Below are positions 4,101 to 24,058 of a stretch of DNA of 64,000 bases, in pieces. The notes below the pieces were generated by a model. It ran no database searches. It saw only the letters and a list, made by a program, of their open reading frames with translations, and was not told the origin of the DNA. Both the position numbers and the translations under genes were made by a program. The DNA is taken from contig JAJFBF010000005.1 of assembly GCA_020697295.1 (NCBI GenBank), forward strand, positions 13,994 to 77,993, read 5' to 3'. Source of the stretch: Moraxellaceae bacterium (GTDB taxonomy: Bacteria > Pseudomonadota > Gammaproteobacteria > Pseudomonadales > Moraxellaceae). How positions within the stretch are numbered: the stretch's first letter is position 1; every line of letters begins with the position of its first letter.

Positions 4101-4345
4101 ATGTCCGCATTTGAGCAGACATAGATCACGTCAATGCGAGGTTCGATATCCTGAAGATGCTCGATCGTCTTTGCCAGCAGTCCGCGGGCGATCATGGTTT
4201 TGCCCATGCCAACTTCGTCAGCCACCAGAAAGCGGCGCGTCTGCTGTTCGTCTACGAACAGTCGATGAAAGGCATAATCAACAGTTCGCTTCTGGAAGTC
4301 CTTGAGAGACGCCAGCGTATCGGTCGCACTGAACCGGTTCATCAT
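1169..4345 (-). CDS. SNF2-family (SF2) helicase
   Basis: Motifs LVADEVGMGKTMIARG (I), VILDEFQRF (II), LLLSATPYKM (III), TSVGQEGLDF...NLPSNPVDMEQREGRVHRYKG (V/VI). ATG at 4345 overlaps the upstream stop (ATGA). The ORF track start at 4384 is probably too long. Confidence 0.9.
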   Translation of the reverse strand: MMNRFSATDTLASLKDFQKRTVDYAFHRLFVDEQQTRRFLVADEVGMGKTMIARGLLAKTIEHLQDIEPRIDVIYVCSNADIAQQNVNSLKLPGMDPFAMATRLTLLPLHIHGMRKRKVNLISFTPGTTFDQGHRSGHKEERRLLYKMLCSLPWLKKRALVNALQGPAGDGWFNYVEEEIGFDPDIASDFLLAIQKNASLRMELEWLSDRYHDGRKLRSISSEDRNRCLSLIGKLRQTLAKECLSALEPDLVILDEFQRFRDLLRNPEDSPEAELAHALFNYGKVRMLLLSATPYKMYVQDSEAEDHYKDFIQTARFLFRHDDDLSALERDLKDYRRAMLRVNNDADALAGLPEIRKRVEQKLLSIMCRTERIGHTDSRDGMVAEQLIRPRLSPRDLEAFRLVDRVASDLEQRQDVMEYWKSGSYVLNFMKDYQLKQDLRKRAARRAPELAQLLRSNERLLLDSSAFDHYRDVEVGNPRLRALWDEIEQSGLWQLLWLPPSMPYWQQEGAFATAKGAVKRLLFSAWNLVPDAVSALISYQVERRLVQEAGYAGNYHDMPKRLGQHLRFRMQDKERAASMSTLALMFPSPTLAAEIDPLSIASSLGPQPTLTRVREVAIQRAQALLAPVVDAPTATGAPDRRWYWLALIRLEQRHQPRLVEWCRHRWAAAPRADEKDGVDPDDGQETSFDAHVAHWVECWDTPVPNLGRVPDDLAEVVADLALAGHGTCMLRSLRRSIEHAKLDDWDVLDAAVRGAEGLRSQFNHPLATALLKTSDADAYWQRVLRYGIEGNLQAVLDEYAHMLAERCSLGSISTGATAAKVADAMFEALSLRTVKVMPDIIKVEGDRIDFEPHSIRCHFALRLGEFSEDNKAVARKGAVKEAFNSPFRPFVLTSTSVGQEGLDFHHWCHSVVHWNLPSNPVDMEQREGRVHRYKGHAVRKNVALRYSDRLAEVGPEQDPWRYVFEQANRDKPADSTDLIPYWIYDVPEGSKVQRQIFDMPFSRDTGRYHALKRGLSLYRLAFAQPRQEDLLACLGTHLDETQLAKLVESSLIKLEPPT

Positions 4346-6144
4346 TCCTTGCTCTCCCGGCCAGCACTCGCTACTACTTGCCACAGGGCCTCGAATTCTT
4401 CCGGCACAATGTCACCCTCGGCCACCTTGTCCTGCCGAAGGCGCACCATCACCGATTCGATGTAGTCCAGCTTTCCTGGATCGCGGGCATAGGCGCGTGC
4501 CAGCATTTCGAAGAGCGACTCATTTGTGCCTGCTTCTGCATTCCAGCCGCCCTTGCCCTTACCTTGCTTGTCAGGCTTCTCGAGGTCAGGCCCCTGCTTA
4601 CCCAGCAACAGCAGCATGTAGCGGAGGAATCCCTCCCGGTTCTCCAGAATGCCCCGCATCACATCGGCATCCCGGCCAGCCGGCGGGTTGATCAGAGGGA
4701 TCTCCAGGCCAAAGTTCAGCTCCACCTCATTGAGCCGCAGGCGAAAGCCCACCAAAGACGTGACATCCCGCAAGGACAAGCGTGGCATGGTGGGCTCAGG
4801 AGGCGTGGCGCCCCGGTTAACTGCGGTGGCAGCGGTTGCGGGCACGGTGAGCGGCCACACGGCAAGCTCAAGGGTGGCCGGCCCCGGCAGCGAGAGGCCC
4901 TTCAATGTCAGTGTCCAGCCGTCTTCGGTTTGGTCGCATGCCAGAGAGAGGGACTGCATTGCAATACTGCGCCGGGCATCGTCCAGTAGCTGCTGGTCCC
5001 GAATCGTGGCCGCGTCTTCCGCCGGCACTTCGCTGCGCTGATAGGGCTCCAGAATGTCTCCGATGCCCGCGCTGCTGATCCAGTCGGACGGCAGGCCAGC
5101 CTTGCGTTTGCCCGTCAGCTCGACCATGAACTCGACATTTTTACCCGCCATCAGTGCGGCATCTGTTGCGTTGGCCGACCCGACAAACAGATGCGTATCC
5201 CATCCGGCCTGTCCGATATAGGCCTTGGCATGCAAGCCCGTGAGCCGGTCTGATTCGGTGCCCCCGGTCTCTAACTGGTCTGCTCCGTCGCGCATGACAA
5301 GTACCTGCTGAAACGCGCCAAAAGCTCTCTCGGGGAGGCGGTCGAGTTCCTCCGCCCGTGATACCAGGAAGAGGGGGGTATGGCTGCATTCGGCCAGTTG
5401 CCGCAACGCCCCTTCACCTATAAACGGCGAGATCACGCCTAGCTCATCCCAGCGCCGGTCGAGCCGGGCTGGCAGCCACGGAGCTGGCTGTTTGCCAAGG
5501 CCCAGTGCATGGAACTCAATCTGCTCAAATTTGCCGGGCAATTCCCACTCCGCAGCCGAGGCGTCCAAAATCAGGGTATCCAGATCGGATGCCCGCCGTT
5601 TGGACATATCCTTATGCTTCAGCCCCGCCACGCTTTTCAGGAAGGCTGCCAGCTTGTCCTGGCGCCGGTGTTTCTTGCCTACCGGGCCCTCCAGGCATAC
5701 CGAGAGATCCCAGGATCCGTCGTCCGTGAGATTGCGGGACATTACCAGCAGCCGTAGAAATGGCGGGTCGCCGCCTTCTTCGGGTTTGAATCGCATCAGC
5801 CAGACCTTGGGGTGAAATGCGCCGCCATGGGGCGCGACCACTTCATGCACCATGGTTTCCAGCAGGGACAGCAAGGGGCTGGCGGCGCGCGGCACCTGTA
5901 ACCGTCCCCGCTCACTGAATACGGTGAAACGCTCGGCGACCCGGCGCAGGCCTTCCAGGGCAAGGACCGGGTCCAGGTTGTCGGGAGTGTCGTCGCCGGT
6001 CGCAAGCCACGCCATATGAAGAGGCATTGCTAGCAGGGTGACCAGGTCGAGCGAGAATGTGGTGGCAACCCCGCAATCAAAGACATGACCGGGAGGCGGA
6101 GTGAGCGCATCGCTCAGCAGCAGGCGGGTCTCGGGACTGATCAT
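4342..6144 (-). CDS. phospholipase D-like (single HKD motif) nuclease-family protein
   Basis: 600-aa ORF with HKD motif GLHAKAYIGQAGWDTHLFVGSANATDAAL. ATGA overlaps at both ends (6141-6144, 4342-4345). Confidence 0.88.
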   Translation of the reverse strand: MISPETRLLLSDALTPPPGHVFDCGVATTFSLDLVTLLAMPLHMAWLATGDDTPDNLDPVLALEGLRRVAERFTVFSERGRLQVPRAASPLLSLLETMVHEVVAPHGGAFHPKVWLMRFKPEEGGDPPFLRLLVMSRNLTDDGSWDLSVCLEGPVGKKHRRQDKLAAFLKSVAGLKHKDMSKRRASDLDTLILDASAAEWELPGKFEQIEFHALGLGKQPAPWLPARLDRRWDELGVISPFIGEGALRQLAECSHTPLFLVSRAEELDRLPERAFGAFQQVLVMRDGADQLETGGTESDRLTGLHAKAYIGQAGWDTHLFVGSANATDAALMAGKNVEFMVELTGKRKAGLPSDWISSAGIGDILEPYQRSEVPAEDAATIRDQQLLDDARRSIAMQSLSLACDQTEDGWTLTLKGLSLPGPATLELAVWPLTVPATAATAVNRGATPPEPTMPRLSLRDVTSLVGFRLRLNEVELNFGLEIPLINPPAGRDADVMRGILENREGFLRYMLLLLGKQGPDLEKPDKQGKGKGGWNAEAGTNESLFEMLARAYARDPGKLDYIESVMVRLRQDKVAEGDIVPEEFEALWQVVASAGRESKE

Positions 6145-7343
6145 TGCTGATAGCCCTCAAACCATTCCTGGAGGAAGCGCTGGGTGATATTCCAACGATA
6201 ATTGAGAAGGCCGAGGCCTGCCGAACCGCTCCATTGCCGCAGCGCGGCCGGACTGGCGAATCGGGAGCGCGCCTTCTTCAATACGCCCTCGCGCCGCTGG
6301 ATCAGTTGCCGGGCGTCGTTCAGGGCCGCGACTTTGTTGCCTGCGTTCCGGGACAATTCCAGCCAGGACTGTACAAAGTCCCGTGTTGATTTGTCCGGCG
6401 GACTGCCATGCTGGCCCAATATGGCCCACAGATCGGTTGGCACCCAGTCAGCCAGGAGGTCCTGGTTTTCGCGCGCGCGGTCGCTTAGCTGCTGCCGGTA
6501 GTCCTCTACCAGCTGCTCTCGTCCGGACCGCTCTGCCAGCTGCAGGTTGTAGAGCAGGGCGGCAGCCTTTACGAGGTAGGCAAAGCGGTGGGCGTGCCCT
6601 ACCAGAACAAGCAGGGCGGGCGGAAAGTCTACTTGGCGCGGGTGCAGCCAGATCTCGTCGACCGGGTCCAGTTGCTGCCGATCGGCCGTGTCCTGCGCCA
6701 GCCAGTTCAGCAAAGAACCCTTCGGCCCCTTGCCCCACAGATCAAGTAGCAGCTCTGCCTCTGCACGCTCAATGCTCATGGTGGCGCCTTTTGGATAGCC
6801 ATCCGGCATCAGCTTCAGGACTTGTTGGTGCCAGGTACTGGCAGTCCCGAACCCTTCCTCGTCATCATCCGCGGCCTTGCGATGGGCTCGACGTTCCAGA
6901 TAGAGATCATCCATGGCAGCGAAATAGCGCGACTGCGCACCGCTGAACAACCGGAATCCCCATGCCTCAAGGCCCGCCCAGTAGACGGAGCTTGGCAGCC
7001 GCTTCAGGCTGCTGCCGGCGTCGCTGCCGATGTAGTCCGACTCTCCGCTTGCCTGAAAGGCCTCCATCAACTGAATTTCGGCGCGACGTGAAGCGGCAGG
7101 TAGCTCGCGGGAACTTATCCTCCGGTCCTCCAGCTGCGCCATTAGCCAGGGAATGTGAAACATATAGCGAAGGCGTGTCTGGATGGTCGATGTGCCGGGA
7201 AACAGGATGTCAGCAATGGCGTCACGAACGCCGCCAATGCCGAGTTCGTCACGGGACTCTGGCGCGTTAAATGAGGAGATCAGCTGCAGGCTGCGCTGTC
7301 GCGCCGTACTGTCCCGGTCCACCCAGGCAATTGAAGAACCCAT
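6141..7343 (-). CDS. hypothetical protein, first gene of the helicase/PLD operon
   Basis: 400-aa ORF with protein-like composition, translationally coupled to the PLD gene. No motif I can name. Confidence 0.75.
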   Translation of the reverse strand: MGSSIAWVDRDSTARQRSLQLISSFNAPESRDELGIGGVRDAIADILFPGTSTIQTRLRYMFHIPWLMAQLEDRRISSRELPAASRRAEIQLMEAFQASGESDYIGSDAGSSLKRLPSSVYWAGLEAWGFRLFSGAQSRYFAAMDDLYLERRAHRKAADDDEEGFGTASTWHQQVLKLMPDGYPKGATMSIERAEAELLLDLWGKGPKGSLLNWLAQDTADRQQLDPVDEIWLHPRQVDFPPALLVLVGHAHRFAYLVKAAALLYNLQLAERSGREQLVEDYRQQLSDRARENQDLLADWVPTDLWAILGQHGSPPDKSTRDFVQSWLELSRNAGNKVAALNDARQLIQRREGVLKKARSRFASPAALRQWSGSAGLGLLNYRWNITQRFLQEWFEGYQQ

Positions 7344-7795
7344 TTTATGTCAGCATCTCGGCGTAAGTTATTATTGTTGGCGCGGCTATAGACGTTCTTC
7401 GCGCGGGGCCTGGCTTACGCAATCTAGAGGCCCTCGTTGGCGGGGGCAAGCTGCGGGAAATACCTATGTCCGGCTGGCTTCCTGAGGCCTGGGCTCCCTT
7501 CTGCAGGGAGGTTGGCCTCCCTTTGGCCGGTTGCTGGCATCTTCTGTCAATATTACGTGCGTCGAGCGACAGAATGTGTCGTGCCATGGGCCAGGGTTTT
7601 CCCCGATTTCAGGGCCAGCTCGAATTTCCCCTTTCATCTCGGGCAGGTGCCTTGGGGGTAGGGAGGGCAGGGGGGCGTCGGGGAGGTCTAAGGCGGGCGG
7701 CTTGTAGGGGAATGAGAACGGCATTAACCTCAACTCACATCGCAGGGGTCCACATTGGACATACTGCATTCCTTGGTCTCCGATTGCCCTCCCTA

Positions 7796-8221
7796 ATGTC
7801 GACACGTCTTGACCTGCCCCCCGTTCCCCAGCTGCGTGAGCTTCTCCTGACGGAGTTTGGTGAGAAGGCGAATTGCTTTGAGCTTCGCGCTTTCGCCATG
7901 ACCAATCTGGCGGGAGACGAGTTTGCCAGGACGAAGCGACCTGGCATTTATGTGTTTTGGCATGAGGACGTTGGCTATCTGAAGATAGGAAAGAGCCAGA
8001 CCAACGCCTCGAAGCGGGCGCTTGAGCATGTACGTGATAACACTCGCACGAAGGATGGGGCTGCCGTTCAGATTCATATGACGGACATGCGGGAGTGCCC
8101 GAAGTGTCATCTTATCCTTGTGAACCTGGATTCGCCCCGCAACATGCACTGGGTGCTCGCCCTGGAGCATTACCTGGAAAATACGTTGAACCCCCGGATT
8201 CGATCGGCGCGTAATGGCTAA
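7796..8221 (+). CDS. GIY-YIG nuclease-domain protein (stand-alone)
   Basis: PGIYVFWHEDVGYLKIGKS...KRALEH...LALEHYLENTLNP fits the GIY-YIG / R / E / N pattern. Internal ATG at 7796 chosen, because the upstream 110 codons of the ORF look non-coding. Confidence 0.6.
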   Translation: MSTRLDLPPVPQLRELLLTEFGEKANCFELRAFAMTNLAGDEFARTKRPGIYVFWHEDVGYLKIGKSQTNASKRALEHVRDNTRTKDGAAVQIHMTDMRECPKCHLILVNLDSPRNMHWVLALEHYLENTLNPRIRSARNG

Positions 8222-8649: not shown

Positions 8650-9507
8650 ATGGGTTATGTACTGAAAGCGGATCAGCTAAAGTTTGCTATTGCGGAAACG
8701 AGTTCTTTCGACTCCCAGCCGCCATATGAATTCATGCCGGGTGATGAGGAGTTAACCCGGGAAATTCTTGAGTCTCCTAGTATATTGGCACTACTTCCGA
8801 GTGGTGATGGCGGAGCCTTGCCTCCTAGTGGAGCAGACGGAGAGATGGTGCTTGAGTCACCAGATGGGCGGCGATATTTCGTGCCTCCGCGATATCAGCC
8901 CCTTGTAAGTATTGTGGCGCTACACTCGGGTGCGTTTGCGCAAGATGCCTCTCTCCAGATACTTCAGAAATTTTTCGATTATTTGCGGGATCTGCTTGGC
9001 TGGATAATGACCCGGAAAGCCTCACTGCGTACGCAAGTTGAGGATATTCTTAAGGATGCCGACTCGATCTATGAAAGTTTTCGTCTCCAAGTTCATGGAA
9101 TGCAAAAGCAGCATGACGACCATATTATTAGCCTTGTTCTGCTGATTCCGGACTTATTTGTATATCTTTGCAGGCTTTTTGCTGACAAGGATGTTGATCG
9201 TCGCGCAAAGGGTGAGCTGATTCTCGCACTTGTGTATCTCGTTTCTCCCGTGGATATCCTCCCGGAGGCCATAATTCCTCCGCCATACGGTTTCCTGGAC
9301 GACATCGGGATTGTTCTTTACTTTTTGAGGAGATCCATGCGGGATGGGTATGTCGACAGGGCGGCGTTTGAGCGAAATTGGCCTGGTGATCCTGGGTTTC
9401 TTGATGCGATGGAGGAGTGGTGGCAGACCATCCTGACTGTTTTGGATGAGCATTTTATTGAAAGTATTGTTAAGGCCGTGCGAGGCCGTACCAAAAAAGG
9501 CAAATAA
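8650..9507 (+). CDS. DUF1232 (YkvA-like) domain protein
   Basis: ALVYLVSPVDILPEAIIPPPYGFLDDIGIVLYFL matches the DUF1232 signature as I recall it. GAGGGAG SD. Lies in an AT-richer patch. Confidence 0.6.
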   Translation: MGYVLKADQLKFAIAETSSFDSQPPYEFMPGDEELTREILESPSILALLPSGDGGALPPSGADGEMVLESPDGRRYFVPPRYQPLVSIVALHSGAFAQDASLQILQKFFDYLRDLLGWIMTRKASLRTQVEDILKDADSIYESFRLQVHGMQKQHDDHIISLVLLIPDLFVYLCRLFADKDVDRRAKGELILALVYLVSPVDILPEAIIPPPYGFLDDIGIVLYFLRRSMRDGYVDRAAFERNWPGDPGFLDAMEEWWQTILTVLDEHFIESIVKAVRGRTKKGK

Positions 9508-9605: not shown

Positions 9606-10250
9606 TTAGCCATCAATAAATCGACCATTCTCAAACATTATAATTTCAATAGCGCGCAGGGATGTTACCGGATACCCAATTTTCGCATTTACCTTGCGAT
9701 GAAAATCGCTGAACTCCGCTCTGGCAGCAATTTCCTTAAGGGAGCTGAGATATTGAATATATAGCGTAGGGTTATTTACCTGATAGTGGTGCGGCTTCTT
9801 TCCATAAAGGAAGAAGTAAATGCGAGAATCCCAGATGGCATAGTTTTCGGGGGCGCAAAAATGGAGCAGCTTTGATGCGCCAACCATTGAGTTGTTTACG
9901 AGGCCCGAAAGACGAACCAGCTTCTCCTTGCAAAGAGGATGTCCAGCGCGCGCTTGCTCCAGCATGTCTGCTGCCTCTGAGGCCGTCGCCCTATCTTTGC
10001 CTTGGCCGAGCTCTAGGATTGTCGGCATCCAGCCATATACCATGTGGCAAGCTCTGACTACATCGCCTTCGCTGATGCGCTGAAGGCTGCTGAGGAGGCC
10101 AAGAAGATGTTTGTAGGAGATGATATACGACGATGTGCAGTCGATAGTTGTTTCATCAATGAGGGCGAGGATGTCGCGCATATCTTTCCCTGAGGGCTGA
10201 TGCAGAGCATGCGAGGCTGCAAATTGAACTGTGTAACTGCCTTCTGGCAC
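9606..10250 (-). CDS. hypothetical protein (last gene of the GTPase operon?)
   Basis: 214-aa ORF, co-oriented and 68 nt downstream of the 518-aa GTPase. AT-richer. No recognisable motif. Confidence 0.5.
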   Translation of the reverse strand: MPEGSYTVQFAASHALHQPSGKDMRDILALIDETTIDCTSSYIISYKHLLGLLSSLQRISEGDVVRACHMVYGWMPTILELGQGKDRATASEAADMLEQARAGHPLCKEKLVRLSGLVNNSMVGASKLLHFCAPENYAIWDSRIYFFLYGKKPHHYQVNNPTLYIQYLSSLKEIAARAEFSDFHRKVNAKIGYPVTSLRAIEIIMFENGRFIDG

Positions 10251-10318
10251 ACTGCGGCGTGGGCCGCAGAGTCTGGCTGCATGTGGACCTGCCAGACCCA
10301 GCGTCCCGCGTGACCTGT

Positions 10319-11875
10319 TCAGGCATCAGTTGCCGGCATGATGTGCTTAGAGAGCATCAGGCGGAGGTCAAGCAGAGTCTCCCGATCTGCTGCCAACGCA
10401 CTGAGGCCGGATCGAAGCTCGTCTTGGTGCCGTCTCAATCGGGCCAGGTCATCGGCAAACAGTGACGTCACCACGGTATCGACCTGCTCTGCGAGGCTCT
10501 GCTCAAGCTGTTCCGCCAAGGCGCCGGCCTGTTGGTGGCAGTGCAAGGCGCGGCGTTGCTCCATCTCGTTCTGCCGGGCCTGTTGATTCTGCGCAAGGAA
10601 GACCTCAAAGACGGCGGCAAGGCCGCGGATCAGTGGACCGAAGCGCTTCAGCCATTCTCGCGAGCTCTTCAGAAAGGGCTGCAGCCACTTGAGATTGGCG
10701 AGCGTCTTGGGGATAAGCGTGTGGTCGACGCCCTTTGCAAACTCAACCGCCTGCCGCGCAAGGCCTGCGCCGCCATCCTTGCCGGCCCCGCCTTGAAGTT
10801 CGCTGGCGAGCTGCTGCCAGTCCAGGCTGCTCTCGAGTACCAGGCTTCCTCCACTCTTGATATCGCTAGTCAGCCACTCTTCCACCTGGCGCGCAGCGTC
10901 GGTGCAAGCTGACACAATCCGGTCTTCGACCGATTCGCCGGCCATGGCAGCCTCCACTGCTGCGCGCAGCGGGCCGCGCTGAATGTTCACGGCACGAGTC
11001 ACTTGGTTGCGAGCGGCGAGATGCAACAGGTTGCTGCTCGTCTCGATGCCGGCCATCGCGCGCGTCGCCTCGTCCAGCTTCTTATTGGCATCATTGCCGA
11101 TGTGGCTTTCAATGGCGGTCAGGGCGGGCGTTACCAGACGGCCTTCGACCTGCTGGCAGTAGGCCGCTAAACGTTGCTGCTCGCCCTTGTAGCGCTGCAG
11201 CCAATTTCCGAATGTGACAAGAAAAGCCTCATAGCCCGAGTGCGTCAGAAGCGCTGGCTTATTGCCGAGTCGTGCGCGCATGGCCGAATCAGCGTTCACC
11301 GTAATCACGGGTAGCTCTTCCAGGATGGCGCTACTGACGTTGGCGCTATTGGCGCTGGCGAGCAGCAGGGAGTTGGTTCGGTCGAGAACCCGCGCGACGT
11401 CATCAGCGTCGGTGCTGCGCGGGTTGATGACGAGGAATACCTTCTTACCAGACTTCACCAAGTCCAGAAGGCGGACATAGACGTCCTGTACATCCTGGTC
11501 TTCGTCCGAGATGACGCAGAGGATGAGGTCACTGCGCTCGATTTCCGCCTGGGTAGCCCTTTCGTGCTCGATCGGGGCGTTGACGCCTGGCGAATCCAGC
11601 AGCACATGGCCGTTCCAGTCATAACGGTCAATGCGATCCGTCGTGGGAATGTCGCCGACCCGGGCCTCATCTCGGCCGAGCAGCGCGTTGATCAAGGTGC
11701 TCTTGCCGGCATTGTAGGCGCCGAACACCAGGACATTGAGTCGCTGTTCCTGGCTGCGCGTGTGAAGATCGGCAAGAGTTACCTCCGCCTGTGAGCCCAA
11801 GGCGCGCTGGAACAGCGGTGCCAATTCCACGAGTTGGGTGTCGATCTTCTCAAAGGGACTATTCATGTAGGGCAT
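10319..11875 (-). CDS. dynamin-like P-loop GTPase
   Basis: G1 VFGAYNAGKSTLINALLG, G3 LLDSPGV, long helical C-terminus. Start at 11875 or ATG at 11866, either of which overlaps the upstream gene end. Confidence 0.85.
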   Translation of the reverse strand: MPYMNSPFEKIDTQLVELAPLFQRALGSQAEVTLADLHTRSQEQRLNVLVFGAYNAGKSTLINALLGRDEARVGDIPTTDRIDRYDWNGHVLLDSPGVNAPIEHERATQAEIERSDLILCVISDEDQDVQDVYVRLLDLVKSGKKVFLVINPRSTDADDVARVLDRTNSLLLASANSANVSSAILEELPVITVNADSAMRARLGNKPALLTHSGYEAFLVTFGNWLQRYKGEQQRLAAYCQQVEGRLVTPALTAIESHIGNDANKKLDEATRAMAGIETSSNLLHLAARNQVTRAVNIQRGPLRAAVEAAMAGESVEDRIVSACTDAARQVEEWLTSDIKSGGSLVLESSLDWQQLASELQGGAGKDGGAGLARQAVEFAKGVDHTLIPKTLANLKWLQPFLKSSREWLKRFGPLIRGLAAVFEVFLAQNQQARQNEMEQRRALHCHQQAGALAEQLEQSLAEQVDTVVTSLFADDLARLRRHQDELRSGLSALAADRETLLDLRLMLSKHIMPATDA

Positions 11876-13547
11876 CCTTCGCCTTCTTCAGGCGCTCTTC
11901 AAATGTTGTGATGTGCTCGTTCAGTTCGGCGGCATGGCCTCTCAAGCGATCGATTGATTCGATACAGTTGTCGATGACGCGGTTGACCTCCTTCGGCACA
12001 ATCGTCTCGAGAAGCGACTGGACGCGCTCCAGAATTTCCTCAGAGGTCACGCCAACCACCTTGGTTTCCCATCGCTCTTCGACAAACCGATCGCCTACCT
12101 TGCTCCCCAGCCAACCTCCGACTAGGCCGCCGACGAAGGTTCCGATGACGGGAATAGGCACCAGAGTGCCGACGGCAGCCCCTAGCATCGCGCCTGCGCC
12201 GGCCGCCGCGGCACGGCTTCCGCTGCCGCTGACCACACGGATGTCGTAACTGTTCTCTGTGAAGCTGCCGATGTCGGCGCTGGAGAGATCGACCAGGATC
12301 TGGTCGATGTTCTTCAGGTACTGGGAGAGGGTTTCCTGCAGCCGTTTGTTGATGCTCTCGACAAGAACATTAGAAATGGCGTGACGAAGCGTGACCACAT
12401 CCTGTTGACCCTTCGTCTTTTCGATAAGCATCGGAAGAGACGCCAGAACATCCGCCATGACTTGTCGGGCCACCGTCTTGCGTTGATGATCAAGCGCCTT
12501 GACTTGTTCACTGGCTTGGCGGGAGAGGTCGGCGATGCGCGGCTGCAGTTGATCATGGATGGTGCCAAGCACCTGGTTTTCCAGATAATTAATCACCTGC
12601 CGCGTGGCCTTGGTCGCCTTGTAGGTCTGCGCGTCGGCAACGCGGTTGGCCAGTTGGGCGAATAGAAGGTCCATGCCGCTGTCTGCAAATCGGCCATCGC
12701 GTTCCGGGTTGCGACGGCAGTAGCGGACGGATATCGATACCGGCGACATGAGGGAGGTGGCGTGCGCGCCGAGCTTGGCGCTGGCACGAGCATGCACATC
12801 GGCCTCCTGGCCGGCCCGACGCGTCTCAGACTTGAGCTCCAGCACCGAAATGATAGCGCCATCGACCTCGTCTTCAACATTGACGTCGCTTTTGGTTATT
12901 ACGGGTAGCAGCGGCTTTCCACGCTCAATCTCGTCCTTGAGGTCGTCAAGCTCCTGCACCTGTCCGGGAGCGACAGAGCTCGTTACCCATAGCACTACGT
13001 CGGCGCTATCGGTAAAGCGGCGAGTGAGGTCGCCATTCTCGCTGGTCACTGAGTGCAAGCCAGGGGAGTCCAGCAGGACTAGTCGCTGTCCGAGGCGAAC
13101 CCCCTGGATGCGAGCAGTGGTTTCAGTGGCACCCTCTGCAAACTCTTCTTCAGTGTCAATGAGCTTTCCATTTTCCAGATAAAAGTACTGGACTTTTTCT
13201 TGTGTAAACTGCCGGGCAACAAAGTTGCCGAATGAGCTCTTTCCGCAGTTAACCTTTCCAAAGACGAGAATGATGACCTGGTCGCCGAAGGTGGAAGAAA
13301 GTTCGCGCATGGGTGCGGCAGCATCCCATCTGCCAACGACTTCTTCAATAATAGTGGTAATGTTACGACCAACTTCCCGCGCCAATTTTCCCAGTTCGTT
13401 GTCATCCGCGAGGCGGCTGGTCGAAGTGGTTTTTCGAAGACCCTGTATCAGCTCCTCCCGGAGTGGAATCAGGCGGGCCTCGGCAGCACCAATATCATCA
13501 AAACGTGCGGTGAAGCTGGAAAGTGCCTCAATAAATGCCGCTCTCAC
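11859..13547 (-). CDS. dynamin-like GTPase with C-terminal glycine-zipper membrane hairpin
   Basis: G1 VFGKVNCGKSSFGN, G3 LLDSPGL, G4 ITKSD. Hydrophobic segment GAGAMLGAAVGTLVPIPVIGTFVGGLVGGWLG. GTG at 13547 is preceded by GGAGGA. The ORF track start is 13601. Confidence 0.85.
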   Translation of the reverse strand: MRAAFIEALSSFTARFDDIGAAEARLIPLREELIQGLRKTTSTSRLADDNELGKLAREVGRNITTIIEEVVGRWDAAAPMRELSSTFGDQVIILVFGKVNCGKSSFGNFVARQFTQEKVQYFYLENGKLIDTEEEFAEGATETTARIQGVRLGQRLVLLDSPGLHSVTSENGDLTRRFTDSADVVLWVTSSVAPGQVQELDDLKDEIERGKPLLPVITKSDVNVEDEVDGAIISVLELKSETRRAGQEADVHARASAKLGAHATSLMSPVSISVRYCRRNPERDGRFADSGMDLLFAQLANRVADAQTYKATKATRQVINYLENQVLGTIHDQLQPRIADLSRQASEQVKALDHQRKTVARQVMADVLASLPMLIEKTKGQQDVVTLRHAISNVLVESINKRLQETLSQYLKNIDQILVDLSSADIGSFTENSYDIRVVSGSGSRAAAAGAGAMLGAAVGTLVPIPVIGTFVGGLVGGWLGSKVGDRFVEERWETKVVGVTSEEILERVQSLLETIVPKEVNRVIDNCIESIDRLRGHAAELNEHITTFEERLKKAKDALHE

Positions 13548-13917
13548 GGAGATCCTCCAGGAATTTAATGGCTGCGTTCTCACGCTCGGCCAGGGTTGCA
13601 AGACTGCTTATTTCTGCCTGCTGCTCGGCTCTTTCTGGGAGTGCCAGATAGGCAGCATGAAGTTGGCTCTCAAAGCGGTCAGGGTTATGAATCAAGGATT
13701 CTGCGCTAAAGCCGGCGGCAGGGACCTGGTATGACGCCAGCAATGCGGTCAGGTGCAGGCTGAGTTCGTCGACTACGGCTCGCCTGCGAGCCGCATGGCC
13801 CTCATCTTCCAGGCAGAAGGCGACACGAAGCTCCGTCATGACGTCCTGAAGATCACTGTTCGCTTTAACCCGCGGAATCCCCTGCAAAGTATCGAGAACT
13901 AGTCGAGCGAATGTCAT
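13528..13917 (-). CDS. small helical hypothetical protein
   Basis: 129-aa ORF. Its start forms an ATGA overlap with the upstream GTPase stop (13914-13917). Confidence 0.6.
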   Translation of the reverse strand: MTFARLVLDTLQGIPRVKANSDLQDVMTELRVAFCLEDEGHAARRRAVVDELSLHLTALLASYQVPAAGFSAESLIHNPDRFESQLHAAYLALPERAEQQAEISSLATLAERENAAIKFLEDLRESGIY

Positions 13918-14738
13918 AGCGCCGCCACCTTTTTGCGCGTCTCAAGGAGTAGCTCCGTTACTTGCAGCTGGAATCCGAGTTTTTTGAGGGCAAAAGACGA
14001 CTCGACGACCTCTAGGCGTGTCCGATGCAGCGAAAGGTTGGTGCTAAGCCGATCCAGCAATTGTGTGCGTAGGCGCTGAATTTCAGCTTTCTTGTTGTCG
14101 GCATGACCCTCCAGCCAGACTGCAATCTGTGCTTTGAGCGGCACGAAGCCTGAAGCTTCGGACAGACGTTGCTTACCTTCGATCTTGCCGCGGACATACC
14201 GAGTGGAAGAGACCTCCATTATTGGAATGCTGAGTGAGCCCACCTGACGGGAAATAACCTGGAGCGTCTGCGTCAGCGCTCCTTCATCGACGTTGTCGAC
14301 GCAGCTGATGACAAGCAGTGCTCGGTCGGTTCGGCCGGCAGCAGCAAGGGCACGCAGAAAATCTGCTTCGCACTGGTCAAGTTCGCCGTCGACGGCGCTA
14401 TGAACGACCAACAGGGCATCCGCTCCCGTATATGCAACCTGGCGCGCAAGATGGTCATCATGCCCAGCCACGTCAGCGTCCAGCCCGGGTGTATCGATCC
14501 AGGTGATTCCATTGGATTCATATCGGCGCACCTCCGTGGTTTCACGCTTGTCAGATGCCTTGAAAACATCCTTGCCTATCAGGGCATTGAGAAGTGAGCT
14601 CTTGCCATGGTTGTACTTTCCAACTACGGCAATCCGTGGAACAGAGGCATCTTCCACAAGCTGACGCAGTTGATCTACCTGGTCGGCCTCGTCTGGTAAA
14701 AGGTCTTCTAGCTCACCATAGGGATCGGTCTGTCTCAT
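13914..14738 (-). CDS. small P-loop GTPase (dynamin/Era-like G domain)
   Basis: G1 VVGKYNHGKSSLLNALIG, G3 IDTPGLD. ATGA overlap with the upstream gene (14735-14738). Confidence 0.85.
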   Translation of the reverse strand: MRQTDPYGELEDLLPDEADQVDQLRQLVEDASVPRIAVVGKYNHGKSSLLNALIGKDVFKASDKRETTEVRRYESNGITWIDTPGLDADVAGHDDHLARQVAYTGADALLVVHSAVDGELDQCEADFLRALAAAGRTDRALLVISCVDNVDEGALTQTLQVISRQVGSLSIPIMEVSSTRYVRGKIEGKQRLSEASGFVPLKAQIAVWLEGHADNKKAEIQRLRTQLLDRLSTNLSLHRTRLEVVESSFALKKLGFQLQVTELLLETRKKVAAL

Positions 14739-15196
14739 ACGAGATCTTCCTCAAGATTTGTCAGAAATGCCTCGGCAGCCTCAAGGCGGCGGATGCGCAG
14801 ACGCAGTTGCCGCCGCCCACGGTCAATGGCCTTCATGGCGGGAGTCTCAAGGTAGTCCTCTACAAGAATGGCCTCTGCAGCCCAAGGATCACCCAGTAGC
14901 ATGCTGACGTCATGCCGGCATTCGCCCATTTCATGCCCGGCGAGGAGGGCAGTTAGTCTGGGACTTAGGTGATTCAGCAGGTTACGGGCATGGGCTTCCC
15001 TTCGGGCCCTGGCATTGGTGGCGCGTGCGCGACGTCTTGCTTTTTCTTCCTCAGCATCATCATCATCATCGCTGCCAGAGGCAGCTGCAGCGGTCAGTAG
15101 TGCAGCAACCCCCGCACCAATAAGCCAGAACGGCAATGGCATGTCCTTTTGCTCCTGTGAGAAACCTCCTAAAGAGGTCAGTCGATAAGACGACAT
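14735..15196 (-). CDS. small single-pass membrane protein
   Basis: 153-aa ORF with TM segment LPFWLIGAGVAALLTAAAA followed by DDDDDAEEE and an Arg-rich helix. An alternative ATG at 15142 has AGGAG upstream. Confidence 0.6.
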   Translation of the reverse strand: MSSYRLTSLGGFSQEQKDMPLPFWLIGAGVAALLTAAAASGSDDDDDAEEEKARRRARATNARARREAHARNLLNHLSPRLTALLAGHEMGECRHDVSMLLGDPWAAEAILVEDYLETPAMKAIDRGRRQLRLRIRRLEAAEAFLTNLEEDLV

Positions 15197-15412: not shown

Positions 15413-17134
15413 TCAATGTGACTGAGCCGCATACCGCCCAATCGCCACCCCCGCCGCCCCCGTATGCAACACATCCAGACTGAACGTCGCCCGCGTCATC
15501 CCGCAATACAGTAGGTTCCGAGTCCGCTCCGTGATCTCCTCAAAATCCAGGTCAATCAGGATCACGGCCTTCGCCTGCTGCCCCTTGAACCGGAACAGGG
15601 TTTCGCAGCGCAGCTCACCTTCGGAAAACACGGGCTGGCCATTCGCCTCGTAGGTGCCGGTAAAGGTCTTCACCCGCAGGCCGGCCACGGTGTCATCGCC
15701 CAGAGCGCTCTTGCCGCGTCCCTTCAAGCTCACAATGGCCAGGTCTTCCGGCGCAAAACGCGCAAGCTGCTCCTGCACCACCCGTTGCAGGGTCTCGTGG
15801 AAAGTGTCGCCGTTATGCTGGTGAAAGCGCGGTTCTTCCCCGGCAATCGGGTTGGCCGCGGTCATGCCCGGCAGGTGTAGGAGAGGCGACAAGAGTTCGG
15901 CAATGCGGCGCGGTGAACGGTAGTTCCGGTCCAGGTGAAGGTGGACGGTGCCGGCGTGCTGATAGTCCCGCTCCTGCAGGCGCTGGTAAGGATCTTCCAG
16001 CCAAATCAGTTCGCCGCCCTCGCGCAGGAAATGGCGGGCGGTGGCGGCCATCTCCGCATCAAAGTCCTGGCCTTCGTCCACAATCAGCACGTCAAAGCGC
16101 CAGTCTTCCGGCAGCGGATGGGCGAGTACGGCCTGCCGCAATTCCATGAAGAAGTCCGGGCCCTGTTCGCCAAAGGCCGGCAGCTCGCCGCGGGCCTCCA
16201 GCACTTCGCGCACCAGATGGTCGAGGTTGGCGACATGGCAGCCTGCCGGGAAGAAAGGCCGCAATGCATCGGCCAGCGGACGGTTGAAGCAGGTGTAGAG
16301 CGGGCGCAGGCCGCGGGACAGGGCCCGCTGCGCCAGGTGCCGGGCGAGCTGGGTCTTGCCGGAGCCGGCGCAACCGGTGACATGCAGCGACCAGGGCTGG
16401 AAGGACAGTCGATCCACCCACTCGCCAAGCTCGGTGGCAAAGCCGCGATAGACGGCCTGCTGGCGCTCCATGGAGGCGCCGAGGTCGGGCGCCAGGTCGA
16501 GTTCGCCCAGGAGGAAATTGACGACGTCGCTGACATGGTCGGGGGAGGTGGGCTTGTCGGCATGGATCTCCTGCACGATCTCGCCCAGACGCTCCATCTG
16601 CGTGCTGTCGATGATGCGCTGGGGATTGAGCTGCAGGCCCTGGTAGGAGCGCAGGTGATAGTCCGGGCAGACGAGCAGGTAGTCGACGGCAATCGAGCTA
16701 CGGCCCTGGTAACGGTACTTCAGGGCATTCTTCACCACTGACACCGAGTTCATGATCTGCTGGCCCACATCCTTGCCCGGGTTCTCCGCGTAGCTTTTCA
16801 GCAGGCGGCCTTGCTCGTCGACCATGAGGCCGCCGTTCTTCTGCTCGATGATGATGAGGTCGCCGGAAGGGGCGACGATGCAGAAGTCGATCTCGCCGAA
16901 CTTGCTCTTGCGCTTGCTGGAGAGGGTGACCCAGCTCAGGTTGGGGAAGATGGCGTAGCGGTCGGGGAGGGCGGCGGCGAGGCGGTCCAGCATGTCGCGC
17001 TCGGCGTCGTGCATGAAGGCGGCGCGCAGTTCCTGCCAGTTTTCGGGGTAGATGGTGGCCATGAGTCCCTTCGGGCGGCTGTCCTTGTTGTTATTGAACC
17101 CCGCCGTAGAGCCGTTCTTTGGCAGGGGCTTCAT
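15413..17134 (-). CDS. NERD-domain / UvrD-like SF1 helicase fusion
   Basis: NERD: FGEIDFCIVAPSGDLIIIEQKNG. Helicase: VTGCAGSGKTQLA, LIVDEGQDF, C-terminal FKGQQAKAVILID...LLYCGMTRA. Start ATG at 17134 with GGGAG SD. The ORF track start at 17323 is probably too long. Confidence 0.85.
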   Translation of the reverse strand: MKPLPKNGSTAGFNNNKDSRPKGLMATIYPENWQELRAAFMHDAERDMLDRLAAALPDRYAIFPNLSWVTLSSKRKSKFGEIDFCIVAPSGDLIIIEQKNGGLMVDEQGRLLKSYAENPGKDVGQQIMNSVSVVKNALKYRYQGRSSIAVDYLLVCPDYHLRSYQGLQLNPQRIIDSTQMERLGEIVQEIHADKPTSPDHVSDVVNFLLGELDLAPDLGASMERQQAVYRGFATELGEWVDRLSFQPWSLHVTGCAGSGKTQLARHLAQRALSRGLRPLYTCFNRPLADALRPFFPAGCHVANLDHLVREVLEARGELPAFGEQGPDFFMELRQAVLAHPLPEDWRFDVLIVDEGQDFDAEMAATARHFLREGGELIWLEDPYQRLQERDYQHAGTVHLHLDRNYRSPRRIAELLSPLLHLPGMTAANPIAGEEPRFHQHNGDTFHETLQRVVQEQLARFAPEDLAIVSLKGRGKSALGDDTVAGLRVKTFTGTYEANGQPVFSEGELRCETLFRFKGQQAKAVILIDLDFEEITERTRNLLYCGMTRATFSLDVLHTGAAGVAIGRYAAQSH

Positions 17135-17228
17135 CGTATGACTCCCTCGAAGGGAGTACACCTTGCGGCCGACGATTGCCCGTTTGGGGCCGCTGGACTG
17201 CAGGGGGGCATGCATATGTATTCGATGG

Positions 17229-17735
17229 CTACATGTCCGCCTGGAGGCTCTCGTCGCCGGACAGGGAAAGGCTTTGCGCCCAGTCGGCGGAATCCGGCTC
17301 GGCCAACCAGCAGAGGCTGTCATGCCGGCTGCCCGCCACTCCCTGCCAGCCTTCCGCCGTCAGAATGGGCGGAGCGACAAACCATTCGCGCACCTCGCCG
17401 TCGGGATTGACCGTCAAGGCGCATCTGTCTGCCGCCAGCGCTATCCGTAAGCCGCGAATGACCTGTGGCCGGTGCCGGAAGCCGTTGTCGTCCAGACAGT
17501 CCGGGCCGGTGACGCCCTGTAGCTGCCAGCAGTCGTCAAGCGGCGTGGCCTGACCGATGATGAAGTGCTGGCCGCGCACGTCCCAATGCGCCATGCCCTT
17601 GTCATCTTCCTGCAGGCGCGGCTTGTCCTCGCAGGCGATAACCTGACCCTGGGGCTGGTAGGTGATCCAGTTCACCCATAGTGGCAGCTTCTGGATAACG
17701 TCGGCGACCAGGAGGCGTGGGTGCTCGATTTTCAT
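17229..17735 (-). CDS. hypothetical protein upstream of the NERD helicase
   Basis: 169 aa from ATG at 17735 (AGGAA SD). The longer ORF (to 18161) has an Arg/Pro-rich, non-coding-looking N-terminus. Confidence 0.5.
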   Translation of the reverse strand: MKIEHPRLLVADVIQKLPLWVNWITYQPQGQVIACEDKPRLQEDDKGMAHWDVRGQHFIIGQATPLDDCWQLQGVTGPDCLDDNGFRHRPQVIRGLRIALAADRCALTVNPDGEVREWFVAPPILTAEGWQGVAGSRHDSLCWLAEPDSADWAQSLSLSGDESLQADM

Positions 17736-18507: not shown

Positions 18508-20385
18508 CTACTCCGTATGGCGTCCCGGATACGGCCGCACCTCGTTTTCCATCTTGGGCGGGTCCGCATTAAAGGCTCGCGAGAAGTCGGCGATGCCCAG
18601 GCGCAGGAGCTGTCCCATCATCTCGAAATCAGACGCGATAATCGCGTTGAAGCGCCCCTTCAGCTGCTCCTGCTCCCAGCGCTTCGACCAGCCGCGGCGC
18701 AGCTCCATCGTGGCGATGCGCAGCTTGCCCCAGCGAATGCTCACGATATGGCACTCCCCGGCCTGGCATTCCGACGCATAACTGTCCACGCAGTGCCGCA
18801 TCTCCATGGCTTCTTCCATCAGCTCCGCTTCGTGCTCCAGGGTCAGGAAACGAAAATCCTGCCAGGCGTGCTCGCGCAGCGGAACACGCCAGCGATGCGC
18901 CACCGTACGCTTTGCCTTTGTCGGCCGGGGTCCCGGTGGCTGTGCCTGTAGCCCCTGCGCTTGTTGACGTTGCTGCTCTTGCTGCAGTTGCTGCAGGCGC
19001 GCGGCCTGCTCCCCGCGTTCGCGTTCCGCGCACATCCGTTCATGCCATTGCCGCGACTGCCGGAGCAGGGCCGGCACTTCTCCCTTGAAGGCCTGGGGCG
19101 GCAGCAGGGGGCTGCAGGCGCGGAACCAGTCGATCAGGTCGCTGAGGTCTTCGCGGTGCCGCGCCATGGCTTCCGGCGTGGCTGAATGCAGCAGGTGGCG
19201 GGCGATGGCGGTGAGCAGCAGGTCGGTTTTCTTGACCTGCTCCGGCGGTAGCTCGGCGCCGGGTACCACTCCATTGAGCACCCGCAGCGAGGCGCTGCGT
19301 CGTTGCAGGCGATACCACTGCTGGCGTTCGCCGCAAACCGGCGCTCGCAGGCCCGTGCGCAGGGCGGTGAGGCGGGAGGGAATGTCGCTGACGATCTCCG
19401 GCAACTGGTGGCGCCAGGCGCGGTAAAAGCGCGTGCAGGGGCCAAGCCGCGACAGCAGGAAGCCGAGTGCCGGCAGGAAGTCGGCCAGCCGTCCCTCGGC
19501 CTGCCAGTGGCCGAGCGTAAGGCCCAGGTCGCGCAACTGCGGCAGCGGGACCTGGTGCAACCGTGCCCACGCGTTGCGCGGCAGGCCCTGAGCGCGCAAG
19601 GCGGCGCGGACGTCGTCGATGCGCAACGAGCCGATAAGGCCCGCCTCGCGCAGGGGCAGCGCCAGCCACACCAGCTTGCGGGCGCGGCGCGGCCAGCGGC
19701 GCAAGGTCTCCCACTCGGCGAGCAGGCAGCCGATCTCCGCCGGCGTGGGGTGCGGCGTGCCGCGCCCGAGTTCGCGCAGGTAGCACTGCAGGAAACCGGA
19801 GGGATAGCCGATCCGACGCAACAGCAGTGCCTTCAGTAGCGGCCCTTCGCCTTCAAGGGTGCGTCGCACGACAGTGGCGAGGGTGCGTGGCAGCTCGTGG
19901 CGCTCGACGGGCCACAGATCCTCGAACCATGGCTGCAGCAACAGCCACTGTCCGGTCCATCCCCGCAGCAGTGGCCCCAGCGCCACGATCCACTCGGCAT
20001 TGTTGAGCGGCTCTTGCAGCTGCCGCTCCGGCTGCCAGTCGCCGGTTTGCCAATAGCCGATGGCCTGGCCCTGCGTATTGAGGCGCACCTGCAGCCGGCA
20101 ATCGCCAATCCGGATCGCGCGCTGATCGCCATTGTCCTGCACCTGCACCATGAGGCGCACCAGATGCAGCGAGAGTGCCGCGGCATCGAGGGGCACCGTC
20201 GCCGGATCGGAAAACGCCGACCCGGCCTGGGTCATCTCGGACCGGACCATTCTGGACAGCGCCATCGCCAGCTGGGCGGCAAGCGCCTGCTCCAGGTCAT
20301 CGGGCTCTGGCGTGTCAAGAAGCAGCGCGCGCAGCGACGCAATATCCGCGGGGTCACAGGCGGCGGGCTGGAAGGCTTTGCTCAT
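18508..20385 (-). CDS. PcfJ-like domain protein
   Basis: C-terminal core LEHEAELMEEAMEMRHCVDSYASECQAGECHIVSI resembles the PcfJ-like family signature (EG..M.HCV..Y) as I recall it. ATG at 20385. Confidence 0.75.
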   Translation of the reverse strand: MSKAFQPAACDPADIASLRALLLDTPEPDDLEQALAAQLAMALSRMVRSEMTQAGSAFSDPATVPLDAAALSLHLVRLMVQVQDNGDQRAIRIGDCRLQVRLNTQGQAIGYWQTGDWQPERQLQEPLNNAEWIVALGPLLRGWTGQWLLLQPWFEDLWPVERHELPRTLATVVRRTLEGEGPLLKALLLRRIGYPSGFLQCYLRELGRGTPHPTPAEIGCLLAEWETLRRWPRRARKLVWLALPLREAGLIGSLRIDDVRAALRAQGLPRNAWARLHQVPLPQLRDLGLTLGHWQAEGRLADFLPALGFLLSRLGPCTRFYRAWRHQLPEIVSDIPSRLTALRTGLRAPVCGERQQWYRLQRRSASLRVLNGVVPGAELPPEQVKKTDLLLTAIARHLLHSATPEAMARHREDLSDLIDWFRACSPLLPPQAFKGEVPALLRQSRQWHERMCAERERGEQAARLQQLQQEQQRQQAQGLQAQPPGPRPTKAKRTVAHRWRVPLREHAWQDFRFLTLEHEAELMEEAMEMRHCVDSYASECQAGECHIVSIRWGKLRIATMELRRGWSKRWEQEQLKGRFNAIIASDFEMMGQLLRLGIADFSRAFNADPPKMENEVRPYPGRHTE

Positions 20386-20406
20386 GTGCAATTTCGCCCG
20401 GCTGGC

Positions 20407-23128: not shown

Positions 23129-24058
23129 ATGACCACAGCAAGCCCAGCCAGGGATGCGCTCCAGGCCGAATTCCCGCTCCGCGCGCGCGGGGCGCTTTAC
23201 GGGCTGATCCTGGGCGACATCATCGGCGCCTATTTCGAATTCTCCTCCCGCGGGCGCAAGGAGCTTCCCACCCTGGGTGATCTGGCGGGGAAGACCAACG
23301 TCTTCGGCATCCGCTTTGGCTATACCGACGACAGCATCCTGGCACTGCTCGGCATGGAAAGCCTGGTGGACTGCGCGGGGCGCTGGGACACTGCCAGCCA
23401 GCGTGACCATGCCCGCCGCTACATGAACGGCGAGACCGCCTGGAGTCCGAATGGCCGCTGCTTCGATATCGGGATCTCTACGCTGCGCTCGCTGCGGGAT
23501 GGCGAATGGGCCGGCAAGCGAGACGCCCGCAGCGCTGGCAACGGCGTACTCATGAAGCACCTGCCGTTTGTGATTGGCCGTTGCCTGCATCCGGACCAGG
23601 AACCCGTGGAGTACTACCGGCAGGTCGCCGACCTAACGCATGGCTGTCCGAGTACGGTGACTACCGCAAGGGAAATGGGCCTGCTGCTGGAGCGCCTGCT
23701 GCAAGGCCTGCCCTGGAGCGATGCCCATGCGGGGCTGGACACGGCGATACGCCACGAGACACTTTCGGTCGAGCGGACCTACAGCGGCTTTTGCGAGGAT
23801 TCCTGGGTGCTGGCCCTGCAACTGGTGCAGCGTCGTTTCAAGGACGACCTGGACTGGACGCGTGGCATCCAGTGCATCATGGACCTGGGCGGTGATACCG
23901 ACACCAATGCCGCCATCTATGGTCAGCTATACGGGGCGCTGTTTCCGGCCGAGATCATCGCGCAGTACGAGGCCGTCCGCGCGCATGTCCACCGCGCGGA
24001 GGATATTGATGCGTTACTGGAGCGCTTGCTGGCGACGGGGGAAGGCGTCGCGGCATAA
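23129..24058 (+). CDS. ADP-ribosylglycohydrolase family protein
   Basis: LYGLILGDIIGAYFEF, GYTDDSILAL, LGGDTDTNAAIYGQLYGA are canonical ARH/DraG motifs. Confidence 0.85.
   Translation: MTTASPARDALQAEFPLRARGALYGLILGDIIGAYFEFSSRGRKELPTLGDLAGKTNVFGIRFGYTDDSILALLGMESLVDCAGRWDTASQRDHARRYMNGETAWSPNGRCFDIGISTLRSLRDGEWAGKRDARSAGNGVLMKHLPFVIGRCLHPDQEPVEYYRQVADLTHGCPSTVTTAREMGLLLERLLQGLPWSDAHAGLDTAIRHETLSVERTYSGFCEDSWVLALQLVQRRFKDDLDWTRGIQCIMDLGGDTDTNAAIYGQLYGALFPAEIIAQYEAVRAHVHRAEDIDALLERLLATGEGVAA

Follow-up and report, generated by a model that had tools for sequence, protein, structure and literature searches.

In a 64,000-nt stretch of DNA from a Moraxellaceae bacterium (contig JAJFBF010000005.1; 'the window' from here on, in whose numbering all positions are given), the minus-strand locus at 9606-15196 contains a real operon, centred on a trio of dynamin-like GTPases together with a small anchor protein for the membrane. 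We consider it probable that this locus represents a conserved four-component, dynamin-like and 'Eleos-like' membrane-remodelling defence module, joined by one lineage-specific extra gene and lodged in a defence island. In the anatomical and evolutionary part of this reading we have high confidence; on a function of the module in defence, as suggested by sequence context, we are evenly divided, and the 'gating' model developed below for its small GTPase and anchor is held more loosely still. Eleos itself is a two-gene dynamin-like operon (LeoBC, LeoA) with anti-phage activity (Millman et al. 2022; 10.1101/2022.05.11.491447), and the core of the module follows the order leoBC then leoA: first G2, an inner-membrane protein with a glycine-zipper hairpin, then G3, a soluble LeoA-like protein. 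The conserved additions to this core are G1, a truncated paralogue of G3, and A, a single-pass membrane protein.

A sequence-only reading of this DNA had described a six-gene operon, and all six minus-strand open reading frames (ORFs) are present where it placed them. In order of transcription these are A (14735-15142, with the ORF open back to 15196; a small single-pass membrane protein of 135 aa from Met19), G1 (13914-14738; a soluble GTPase of 274 aa), B (13528-13917; a soluble, helical orphan of 129 aa), G2 (11859-13547 from a GTG start, with an alternative TTG start at 13601; a membrane-inserted dynamin-like protein of 562 aa), G3 (10319-11875; a soluble, LeoA-like dynamin-like GTPase of 518 aa, or 515 aa if it starts at Met4) and X (9606-10181, or to a GTG at 10250; 191 aa, or 214 aa from the GTG), a neighbour that lies outside the module. 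The four overlaps that had been claimed can all be read in the sequence: ATGA overlaps join A to G1 (14735-14738) and G1 to B (13914-13917), B and G2 share 20 nt (13528-13547) when G2 starts at GTG 13547, a start backed by homologue alignments, and G2 and G3 share 17 nt (11859-11875). X is separated from G3 by 68 nt if it starts at the GTG and by 137 nt if it starts at ATG 10181, and its guanine-plus-cytosine (GC) content is 49%, against 55-61% for the module; X is therefore uncoupled, and the coupled unit consists of five genes (A, G1, B, G2 and G3) rather than six. The surrounding backbone has a GC content of 62-70%, so that the module sits in a low-GC stretch of the window. A scan of the locus for promoters and terminators returned nothing above shuffled sequence. 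By hydropathy, just two of the proteins have membrane segments, A (residues 1-23, counted from Met19) and G2 (residues 447-480), the same two for which membrane stretches had first been proposed; G1, B, G3 and X are all soluble.

The nucleotide-binding motifs that had been picked out in three of the products are likewise all in place. G1 carries the P-loop GKYNHGKS (14598-14621, including Lys46), a switch-I threonine (Thr67) and DTPG (14484-14495); G2 carries GKVNCGKS (13236-13259, including Lys103), DSPG (13059-13070) and TKSD (12885-12896); and G3 carries GAYNAGKS (11699-11722, including Lys58) and DSPG (11585-11596). The P-loop, switch-I threonine and DxxG are kept family-wide in all three GTPases, the motifs of G1 being at least 90% conserved over 41 homologues and those of G3 conserved over 34. 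Given this conservation, we predict that G1, G2 and G3 are probably all active GTPases.

Dynamin_N and MMR_HSR1 are matched in Pfam by all three, and G2 in addition matches Gly-zipper_Omp, which together with hydropathy upholds the glycine-zipper hairpin (12108-12209) that had been noted in this protein; a hydrophobic hairpin was found in 26 of 26 members of the G2 family. The AlphaFold2 model of G2 (predicted local distance difference test score, pLDDT, of 78, low only in the hairpin) shows a long helical bundle and the hairpin, and its best Foldseek matches are IniA, LeoA (4AUR), Campylobacter DLP1/2, BDLP and the mitofusins, at 11-14% identity; as modelled, G2 has a bacterial dynamin fold. 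Searches of the Protein Data Bank with single sequences found only Der/Era G-domain matches, and none for G2, whilst the G2 family profile returned one spurious Gly-rich match from the same database.

The Leo (Eleos) models are the only notable PADLOC matches of the three GTPases. G3 matches LeoA (PDLC03839) with 108 bits (E 1.9e-31) over model positions 47-550 of 559, and a profile of 25 G3 orthologues aligns, over positions 29-512, with residues 40-566 of the LeoA chain from enterotoxigenic Escherichia coli (ETEC; 4AUR) at E 4e-10. On this comparison G3 appears to be a distant, full-length homologue of LeoA. G2 matches LeoBC with 55 bits (E 1.6e-15), mainly through its C-terminal half, and LeoA with 46 bits. 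G1 matches LeoA with 88 bits (E 1.6e-25) over the G domain only; against G3 it aligns by BLASTP at 28% identity over ~200 aa (E 7e-16), spanning the G domain and first helix of G3 (~190 residues), and its alignment with G2 is not significant. We read G1 as a truncated paralogue of G3, made up of a complete G domain and one long C-terminal helix. The suggestion that these are dynamin-family rather than housekeeping GTPases was borne out: their NCBIfam scores are 25-63 bits where the cutoffs lie at 116-950, and the best scores against housekeeping families (Era, Der, YihA, MnmE) are 48-63 bits where the cutoffs lie at 116-953. As these housekeeping matches extend over no more than the G domain and come nowhere near the curated cutoffs, we reject the housekeeping reading; nor does the locus lie in conserved core synteny, but in a low-GC island between defence genes.

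The small protein A had been taken as 153 aa long. Its start is very probably Met19 (15142), given that an AAGGA Shine-Dalgarno sequence lies ahead of this codon and that every homologue begins there, and the protein is thereby shortened to 135 aa; the single membrane-spanning helix and the acidic and Arg-rich tracts described for it do stand. A begins with a transmembrane (TM) helix (15074-15142), continues through the acidic stretch SDDDDDAEEE (15044-15073) into a helix rich in Arg (14990-15043), and ends in a C-terminal domain that is helical. The small proteins encoded between G1 and G2 in other genomes share this layout, their N-terminal TM helix being followed by a poly-Ser/Asp tract, then by a charged helix and lastly by the helical C-terminal domain, and a profile built from 28 of them covers the whole of A from Met19 onward (E 3.6e-15). 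In the window A precedes G1, and the usual slot of A, between G1 and G2, is filled by B.

No homologue of B was found among 5.8 billion proteins searched by word index, nor among 1.84 billion representative proteins scanned in full with HMMER; across searches, only B itself and two repetitive proteins were returned. Its pattern of GC content over the three codon positions is of coding type and equal to that of G1, and it overlaps both of its neighbours. Scored against the C-terminal half of B, the A-family profile gives 11.5 bits, in register, a value that 1000 shuffles and 11 helical controls all failed to reach; comparison of the A family with B by hhalign gives P = 0.002, with a probability of only 13%. 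We suggest that B is probably a degenerate paralogue of A that has no TM helix, and this could, most economically, have come about if a G1-A pair was duplicated, as is seen in one other locus (L007), with subsequent loss of the first G1 and decay of the inner copy of A to the TM-less B. The idea that a gene between the NERD helicase gene (see below) and G1 in Burkholderiaceae is a further A homologue was dropped; judged by eye, with no family scan made, this gene is H-NS-like.

G2 has 556 homologues, mostly at 35-42% identity over the full length, in Pseudomonas, Vibrio, Photobacterium, Burkholderia, Cupriavidus, Achromobacter, Marinobacter and other genera, annotated as just 'GTPase' or 'dynamin family protein'; the closest of these (P0002) lies on a 1.9-kb contig that offers no useful context. 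Gene contexts were taken from three look-ups and from 45 species-representative loci (44 of them usable), retrieved with G2 as seed and annotated with phmmer and hidden Markov model (HMM) profiles. A contiguous, co-oriented G1, A-like, G2, G3 arrangement is found in 28 of the 44 usable loci, and truncated contigs are consistent with it. The same four-gene layout recurs at 29% identity on Klebsiella/Raoultella plasmids, where the small protein combines a TM helix with a poly-Ser tract, and related loci are also present in Campylobacterota, Spirochaetia and one Bacteroidales metagenome-assembled genome. Of the proposal that the small ORFs are conserved beside the GTPases, the part concerning A is upheld; the parts concerning the homologue-less B and the stand-alone X are not.

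Variation among these loci shows that A and G1 behave as a genetic pair: they have moved together to a position after G3 (L042), been duplicated together (L007, L030), exchanged places so that A comes before G1 (L028, L046) and, in one case, been fused into a single protein of 498 aa (L045). Duplication and movement of the pair as a block, along with a beta-proteobacterial form that has no G3, would also suit a different arrangement, namely two independent and often adjacent units, one a membrane-anchored small GTPase (A with G1) and the other a dynamin pair (G2 with G3). No G1-A pair without G2 was seen among the retrieved loci, an observation biased by the G2-seeded retrieval, and overlapping stop and start codons join G1, B or A, and G2 both in the window and elsewhere; we regard the two-unit arrangement as very improbable. 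The same coupling bears on whether the locus is simply an ordinary Eleos system, with G2 as LeoBC and G3 as LeoA, alongside which unrelated small genes and an extra GTPase happen to lie. The best PADLOC matches of G2 and G3 are indeed to LeoBC and LeoA, their order and overlap are those of leoBC and leoA, and G3 aligns with LeoA over its full length. Against this, the coupling of G1 and A with G2 and G3 down to 29% identity implies that they are not hitchhikers, G2 attains only one tenth of the score of canonical LeoBC, and G3 scores 24.7 bits against the curated NCBIfam model for LeoA/HP0731 (NF041922), the cutoff of which is 325; an ordinary Eleos system is, in our judgement, improbable.

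Further genes accompany the module in particular lineages. A gene for a CxxCxxCC protein (PF03692) of ~94 aa occurs in 16 gammaproteobacterial loci, either abutting G1 or, in Pasteurellaceae, after G3, and a gene for a TerB-like protein (PF05099) of ~132 aa occurs in nine, often ahead of the CxxCxxCC gene (examples of these additions are L009:5010-5695 and L003:6060-6751); the module in the window has neither. Two Pseudomonas genomes (L001:4271-6627; L013:206-2595) encode two more GTPases of ~375 aa directly upstream of G1, giving five GTPase genes in a row; these extra proteins have septin/MMR_HSR1 matches and one of them a DUF697-like match. Six loci have a gene close to the module, its position and orientation varying, for a protein of ~218 aa that contains an RNxxxH motif and weakly matches RiboL-PSP-HEPN (for example L014:4322-4978 and L032:10585-11265). 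The four-gene module is also carried by conjugative and mobilisable plasmids of Klebsiella, Raoultella and Citrobacter; on an IncFIA plasmid of Klebsiella pneumoniae (L059, 3636-8415) it stands beside a gene for a TrlF-family ATPase and a GNAT/DUF1778 toxin-antitoxin pair.

Bringing these observations together, we propose a speculative model for how the module might work. A would hold G1 at the cytoplasmic side of the membrane, where the tethered G1 head could pair, G domain to G domain, with G3 or G2. Pairing of G domains is the usual route to activation of dynamin GTPases. We speculate that pairing with G1 serves to nucleate or 'gate' the GTP-dependent assembly of a G2/G3 polymer, and that, where a phage perturbs the membrane, this assembly would tether, seal or remodel it, such that the infection cycle is blocked or lysis delayed, as has been proposed for Eleos and for DynA (the latter delays phage lysis; PMC8844932).

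The proposed role in defence draws on what surrounds the module. Directly upstream, and co-oriented with it, is a gene for a NERD plus UvrD-like helicase (15413-17323, minus strand; Pfam NERD and UvrD_C_2; PADLOC RTasNERD-Hel, E 7e-16), whose true start is probably Met88 (17062). Full-length homologues of this helicase are likewise encoded upstream of the module, and co-oriented with it, in loci of Paraburkholderia, Burkholderia and Halomonas (L016:3451-5091, E 1e-93; L019:2746-4371; L005:5327-6220; L048:3750-5441). Its GC content at third codon positions is 0.83, against 0.52-0.73 in the module, and the helicase may be either a functional associate of the module or a co-travelling defence gene. 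On the other side lies a complete Azaca system (1169-7343, minus strand), with PADLOC matches for ZacC (1169-4384, E 0), ZacB (4342-6144, E 3e-166) and ZacA (6141-7343, DUF6361, E 3e-108). Elsewhere the genes flanking the module most closely include those for NERD helicases, parts of type III CRISPR-Cas systems and, in at least 8 of 148 sampled flanks, WYL/BrxR regulators, and its other neighbours include a GmrSD_C protein, insertion sequence elements and integrases.

The principal alternative is that the module serves general membrane-stress repair, acting on the inner membrane to seal or remodel it whatever the source of damage (solvents, pore-forming agents or envelope stress) and riding islands and plasmids as a useful accessory trait. 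A two-gene sub-branch gives this idea some substance: a long G1 (420-470 aa) and G2, without A and G3, lie inside catA-catM-catB-catC clusters on the Acinetobacter johnsonii plasmid pIC001A (L058:3532-6401) and in six beta-proteobacterial genomes (L026, L029, L031, L034, L037, L038), a setting that hints at protection of the membrane while aromatic compounds are broken down. The TerB-like genes added in gammaproteobacterial loci belong to a stress family, and DynA is described as acting against pore-forming antibiotics as well as phages (PMC8844932, PMC12998192). General repair accords poorly, on the other hand, with the four-gene form standing beside Azaca, NERD helicases, WYL/BrxR regulators and type III CRISPR parts, with its patchy, mobile distribution, and with its nearest characterised relative being an anti-phage system; we regard it as unlikely, if still the main rival.

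Several of our own observations nonetheless weigh against the reading of the locus as an Eleos-like defence module, and are gathered here. The defence role is drawn from gene neighbourhood alone, and the catechol-cluster sub-branch argues for general membrane protection, rather than immunity, as the ancestral function. Searching a phage collection with G2 by tblastn gave no match. The likeness of G2 to LeoBC appears marginal, since canonical LeoBC scores 545 bits against the model where the Klebsiella orthologue scores 69 and the G2 of the window 55, and the Vibrio orthologue has no match to the LeoBC model at all. The single-sequence model of G1, in which a helix (201-273) follows the G domain, is of low confidence (pLDDT 57), and the link of B to the A family is weak in both of the comparisons given above. 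Weighing these points against the conserved architecture and its surroundings, we still favour the Eleos-like defence module.

X, which had been put forward as an AT-richer, 214-aa partner of the GTPases, does have the lower GC content, but is not part of the module: it was absent from all 51 GTPase loci examined, and is an unrelated, stand-alone neighbour. Its family comprises 454 homologues of ~191 aa, some with PF19827, that stand alone in unrelated variable regions; the length of these homologues supports the ATG start at 10181. The adjacent, convergent DUF1232 gene (8650-9507, plus strand) has the same GC content as X, and the two look like a separate insertion. In Pseudomonas alloputida (L053) a homologue of X stands beside a type I restriction-modification system, and the distance from it to a canonical Eleos pair, whose LeoBC scores 545 bits, is 1.6 kb. 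Also nearby in the window is a plus-strand ORF (7466-8221) in which a GIY-YIG-looking motif, GIYVFW...YLKIGKS, was picked out by eye; it has no Pfam, PADLOC or NCBIfam match, and translation probably begins well downstream of the ORF's first codon. Further along the island are genes for a PcfJ-like protein (18508-20391, minus strand), which suggests a conjugative-element backbone, and for an ADP-ribosylglycohydrolase (23129-24058, plus strand). A megablast search of the window locus against plasmids found no match.

A bolder version of our interpretation, which we advance only tentatively and with rather less than even confidence, is that the module constitutes a distinct, as yet unnamed four-component immune system that is not Eleos, wherein A and G1 would act as a 'sensor' or 'gate' for the G2/G3 polymer, and that it has been co-opted at least twice, once for phage defence, on islands and plasmids, and once for protection of the membrane in catechol clusters. 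In either version the module is widespread, with hundreds of homologues across Proteobacteria, including on conjugative Klebsiella plasmids. Its recognition by current Eleos models is inconsistent, and censuses of defence systems therefore probably miss or mislabel it. Its likely regulatory parts, the tethered extra GTPase head and the anchor, are genes in their own right, such that each can be mutated separately, which bears on how bacterial dynamin-like pairs are targeted and activated, and on the mechanism of Eleos. The catechol-cluster variant, moreover, offers a natural comparison for whether immunity evolved from general membrane repair.

How, then, does the module compare with systems already described? 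Taking the bacterial dynamin superfamily as defined by a G domain, a helical trunk and a membrane hairpin, all three features are found in G2; G3 is placed there by its alignment with LeoA, and G1 as a truncated member. The fold of the G2 model is shared with Campylobacter DLP1/DLP2 (5OWV/5OXF), Nostoc BDLP (2J68), Mycobacterium IniA/IniC (6J72) and B. subtilis DynA. Bacterial dynamin-like pairs are encoded by tandem genes, which implies hetero-oligomers, and have roles in membrane tethering, fusion and fission. None of DLP1/DLP2, BDLP, IniA/IniC and DynA is accompanied by an extra truncated GTPase and a separate TM anchor, however, and G2 differs from them also in being inserted by a glycine-zipper hairpin. 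An E. coli operon encoding a dynamin, RdcB and a phospholipase (PMC12922286) was considered and is a different system, and no description of the four-part architecture was found in the literature searched. A looser analogy, following Michie et al., is with the long and short isoforms of Mgm1/OPA1, where a TM-anchored GTPase head and a soluble partner gain activity through hetero-association; these are eukaryotic isoforms of one gene, and the homology is at superfamily level only.

Closer to hand are the LeoC-LeoB-LeoA genes of ETEC H10407, in which the first Leo gene is split, LeoC containing the P-loop, switch 1 and a C-terminal TM anchor and LeoB the DxxG motif and stalk (PMC4159319). There, as here, three GTPase-related genes stand in a row with a small one first, and a GTPase head is brought to the membrane by a TM segment, through LeoC's own anchor in the one case and, as we envisage it, through the association of A with G1 in the other. 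The sequence-only reading had accordingly called the locus a 'split' relative of Leo, a description that we do not retain. G1 and G2 each possess a complete set of P-loop, switch-I threonine and DxxG, no hydrophobic segment occurs in G1, the anchor is encoded as a protein of its own, and G1 is paralogous to G3/LeoA and not to G2.

The kinship to Eleos that had also been suggested survives in the PADLOC matches and in the alignment of G3 with LeoA, as a distant relationship. Eleos of B. vietnamensis protects against the jumbo phages AR9 and PBS1, and both P-loops are needed for this (10.1101/2022.05.11.491447). Common to Eleos and the module are two adjacent, co-oriented and overlapping dynamin-like genes, the membrane-type followed by the LeoA-type (here G2 then G3), and a setting in defence islands; to these the module adds, in G3, its distant homology to LeoA. 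They differ in that Eleos has two genes, or three where the first is split, whereas four components (G1, A, G2 and G3) are conserved here. As the module is not split, has two extra conserved components and scores at the edge of the Eleos profiles, we do not file it as Eleos; by these comparisons it is best regarded as a distant 'cousin' of Eleos rather than a member.

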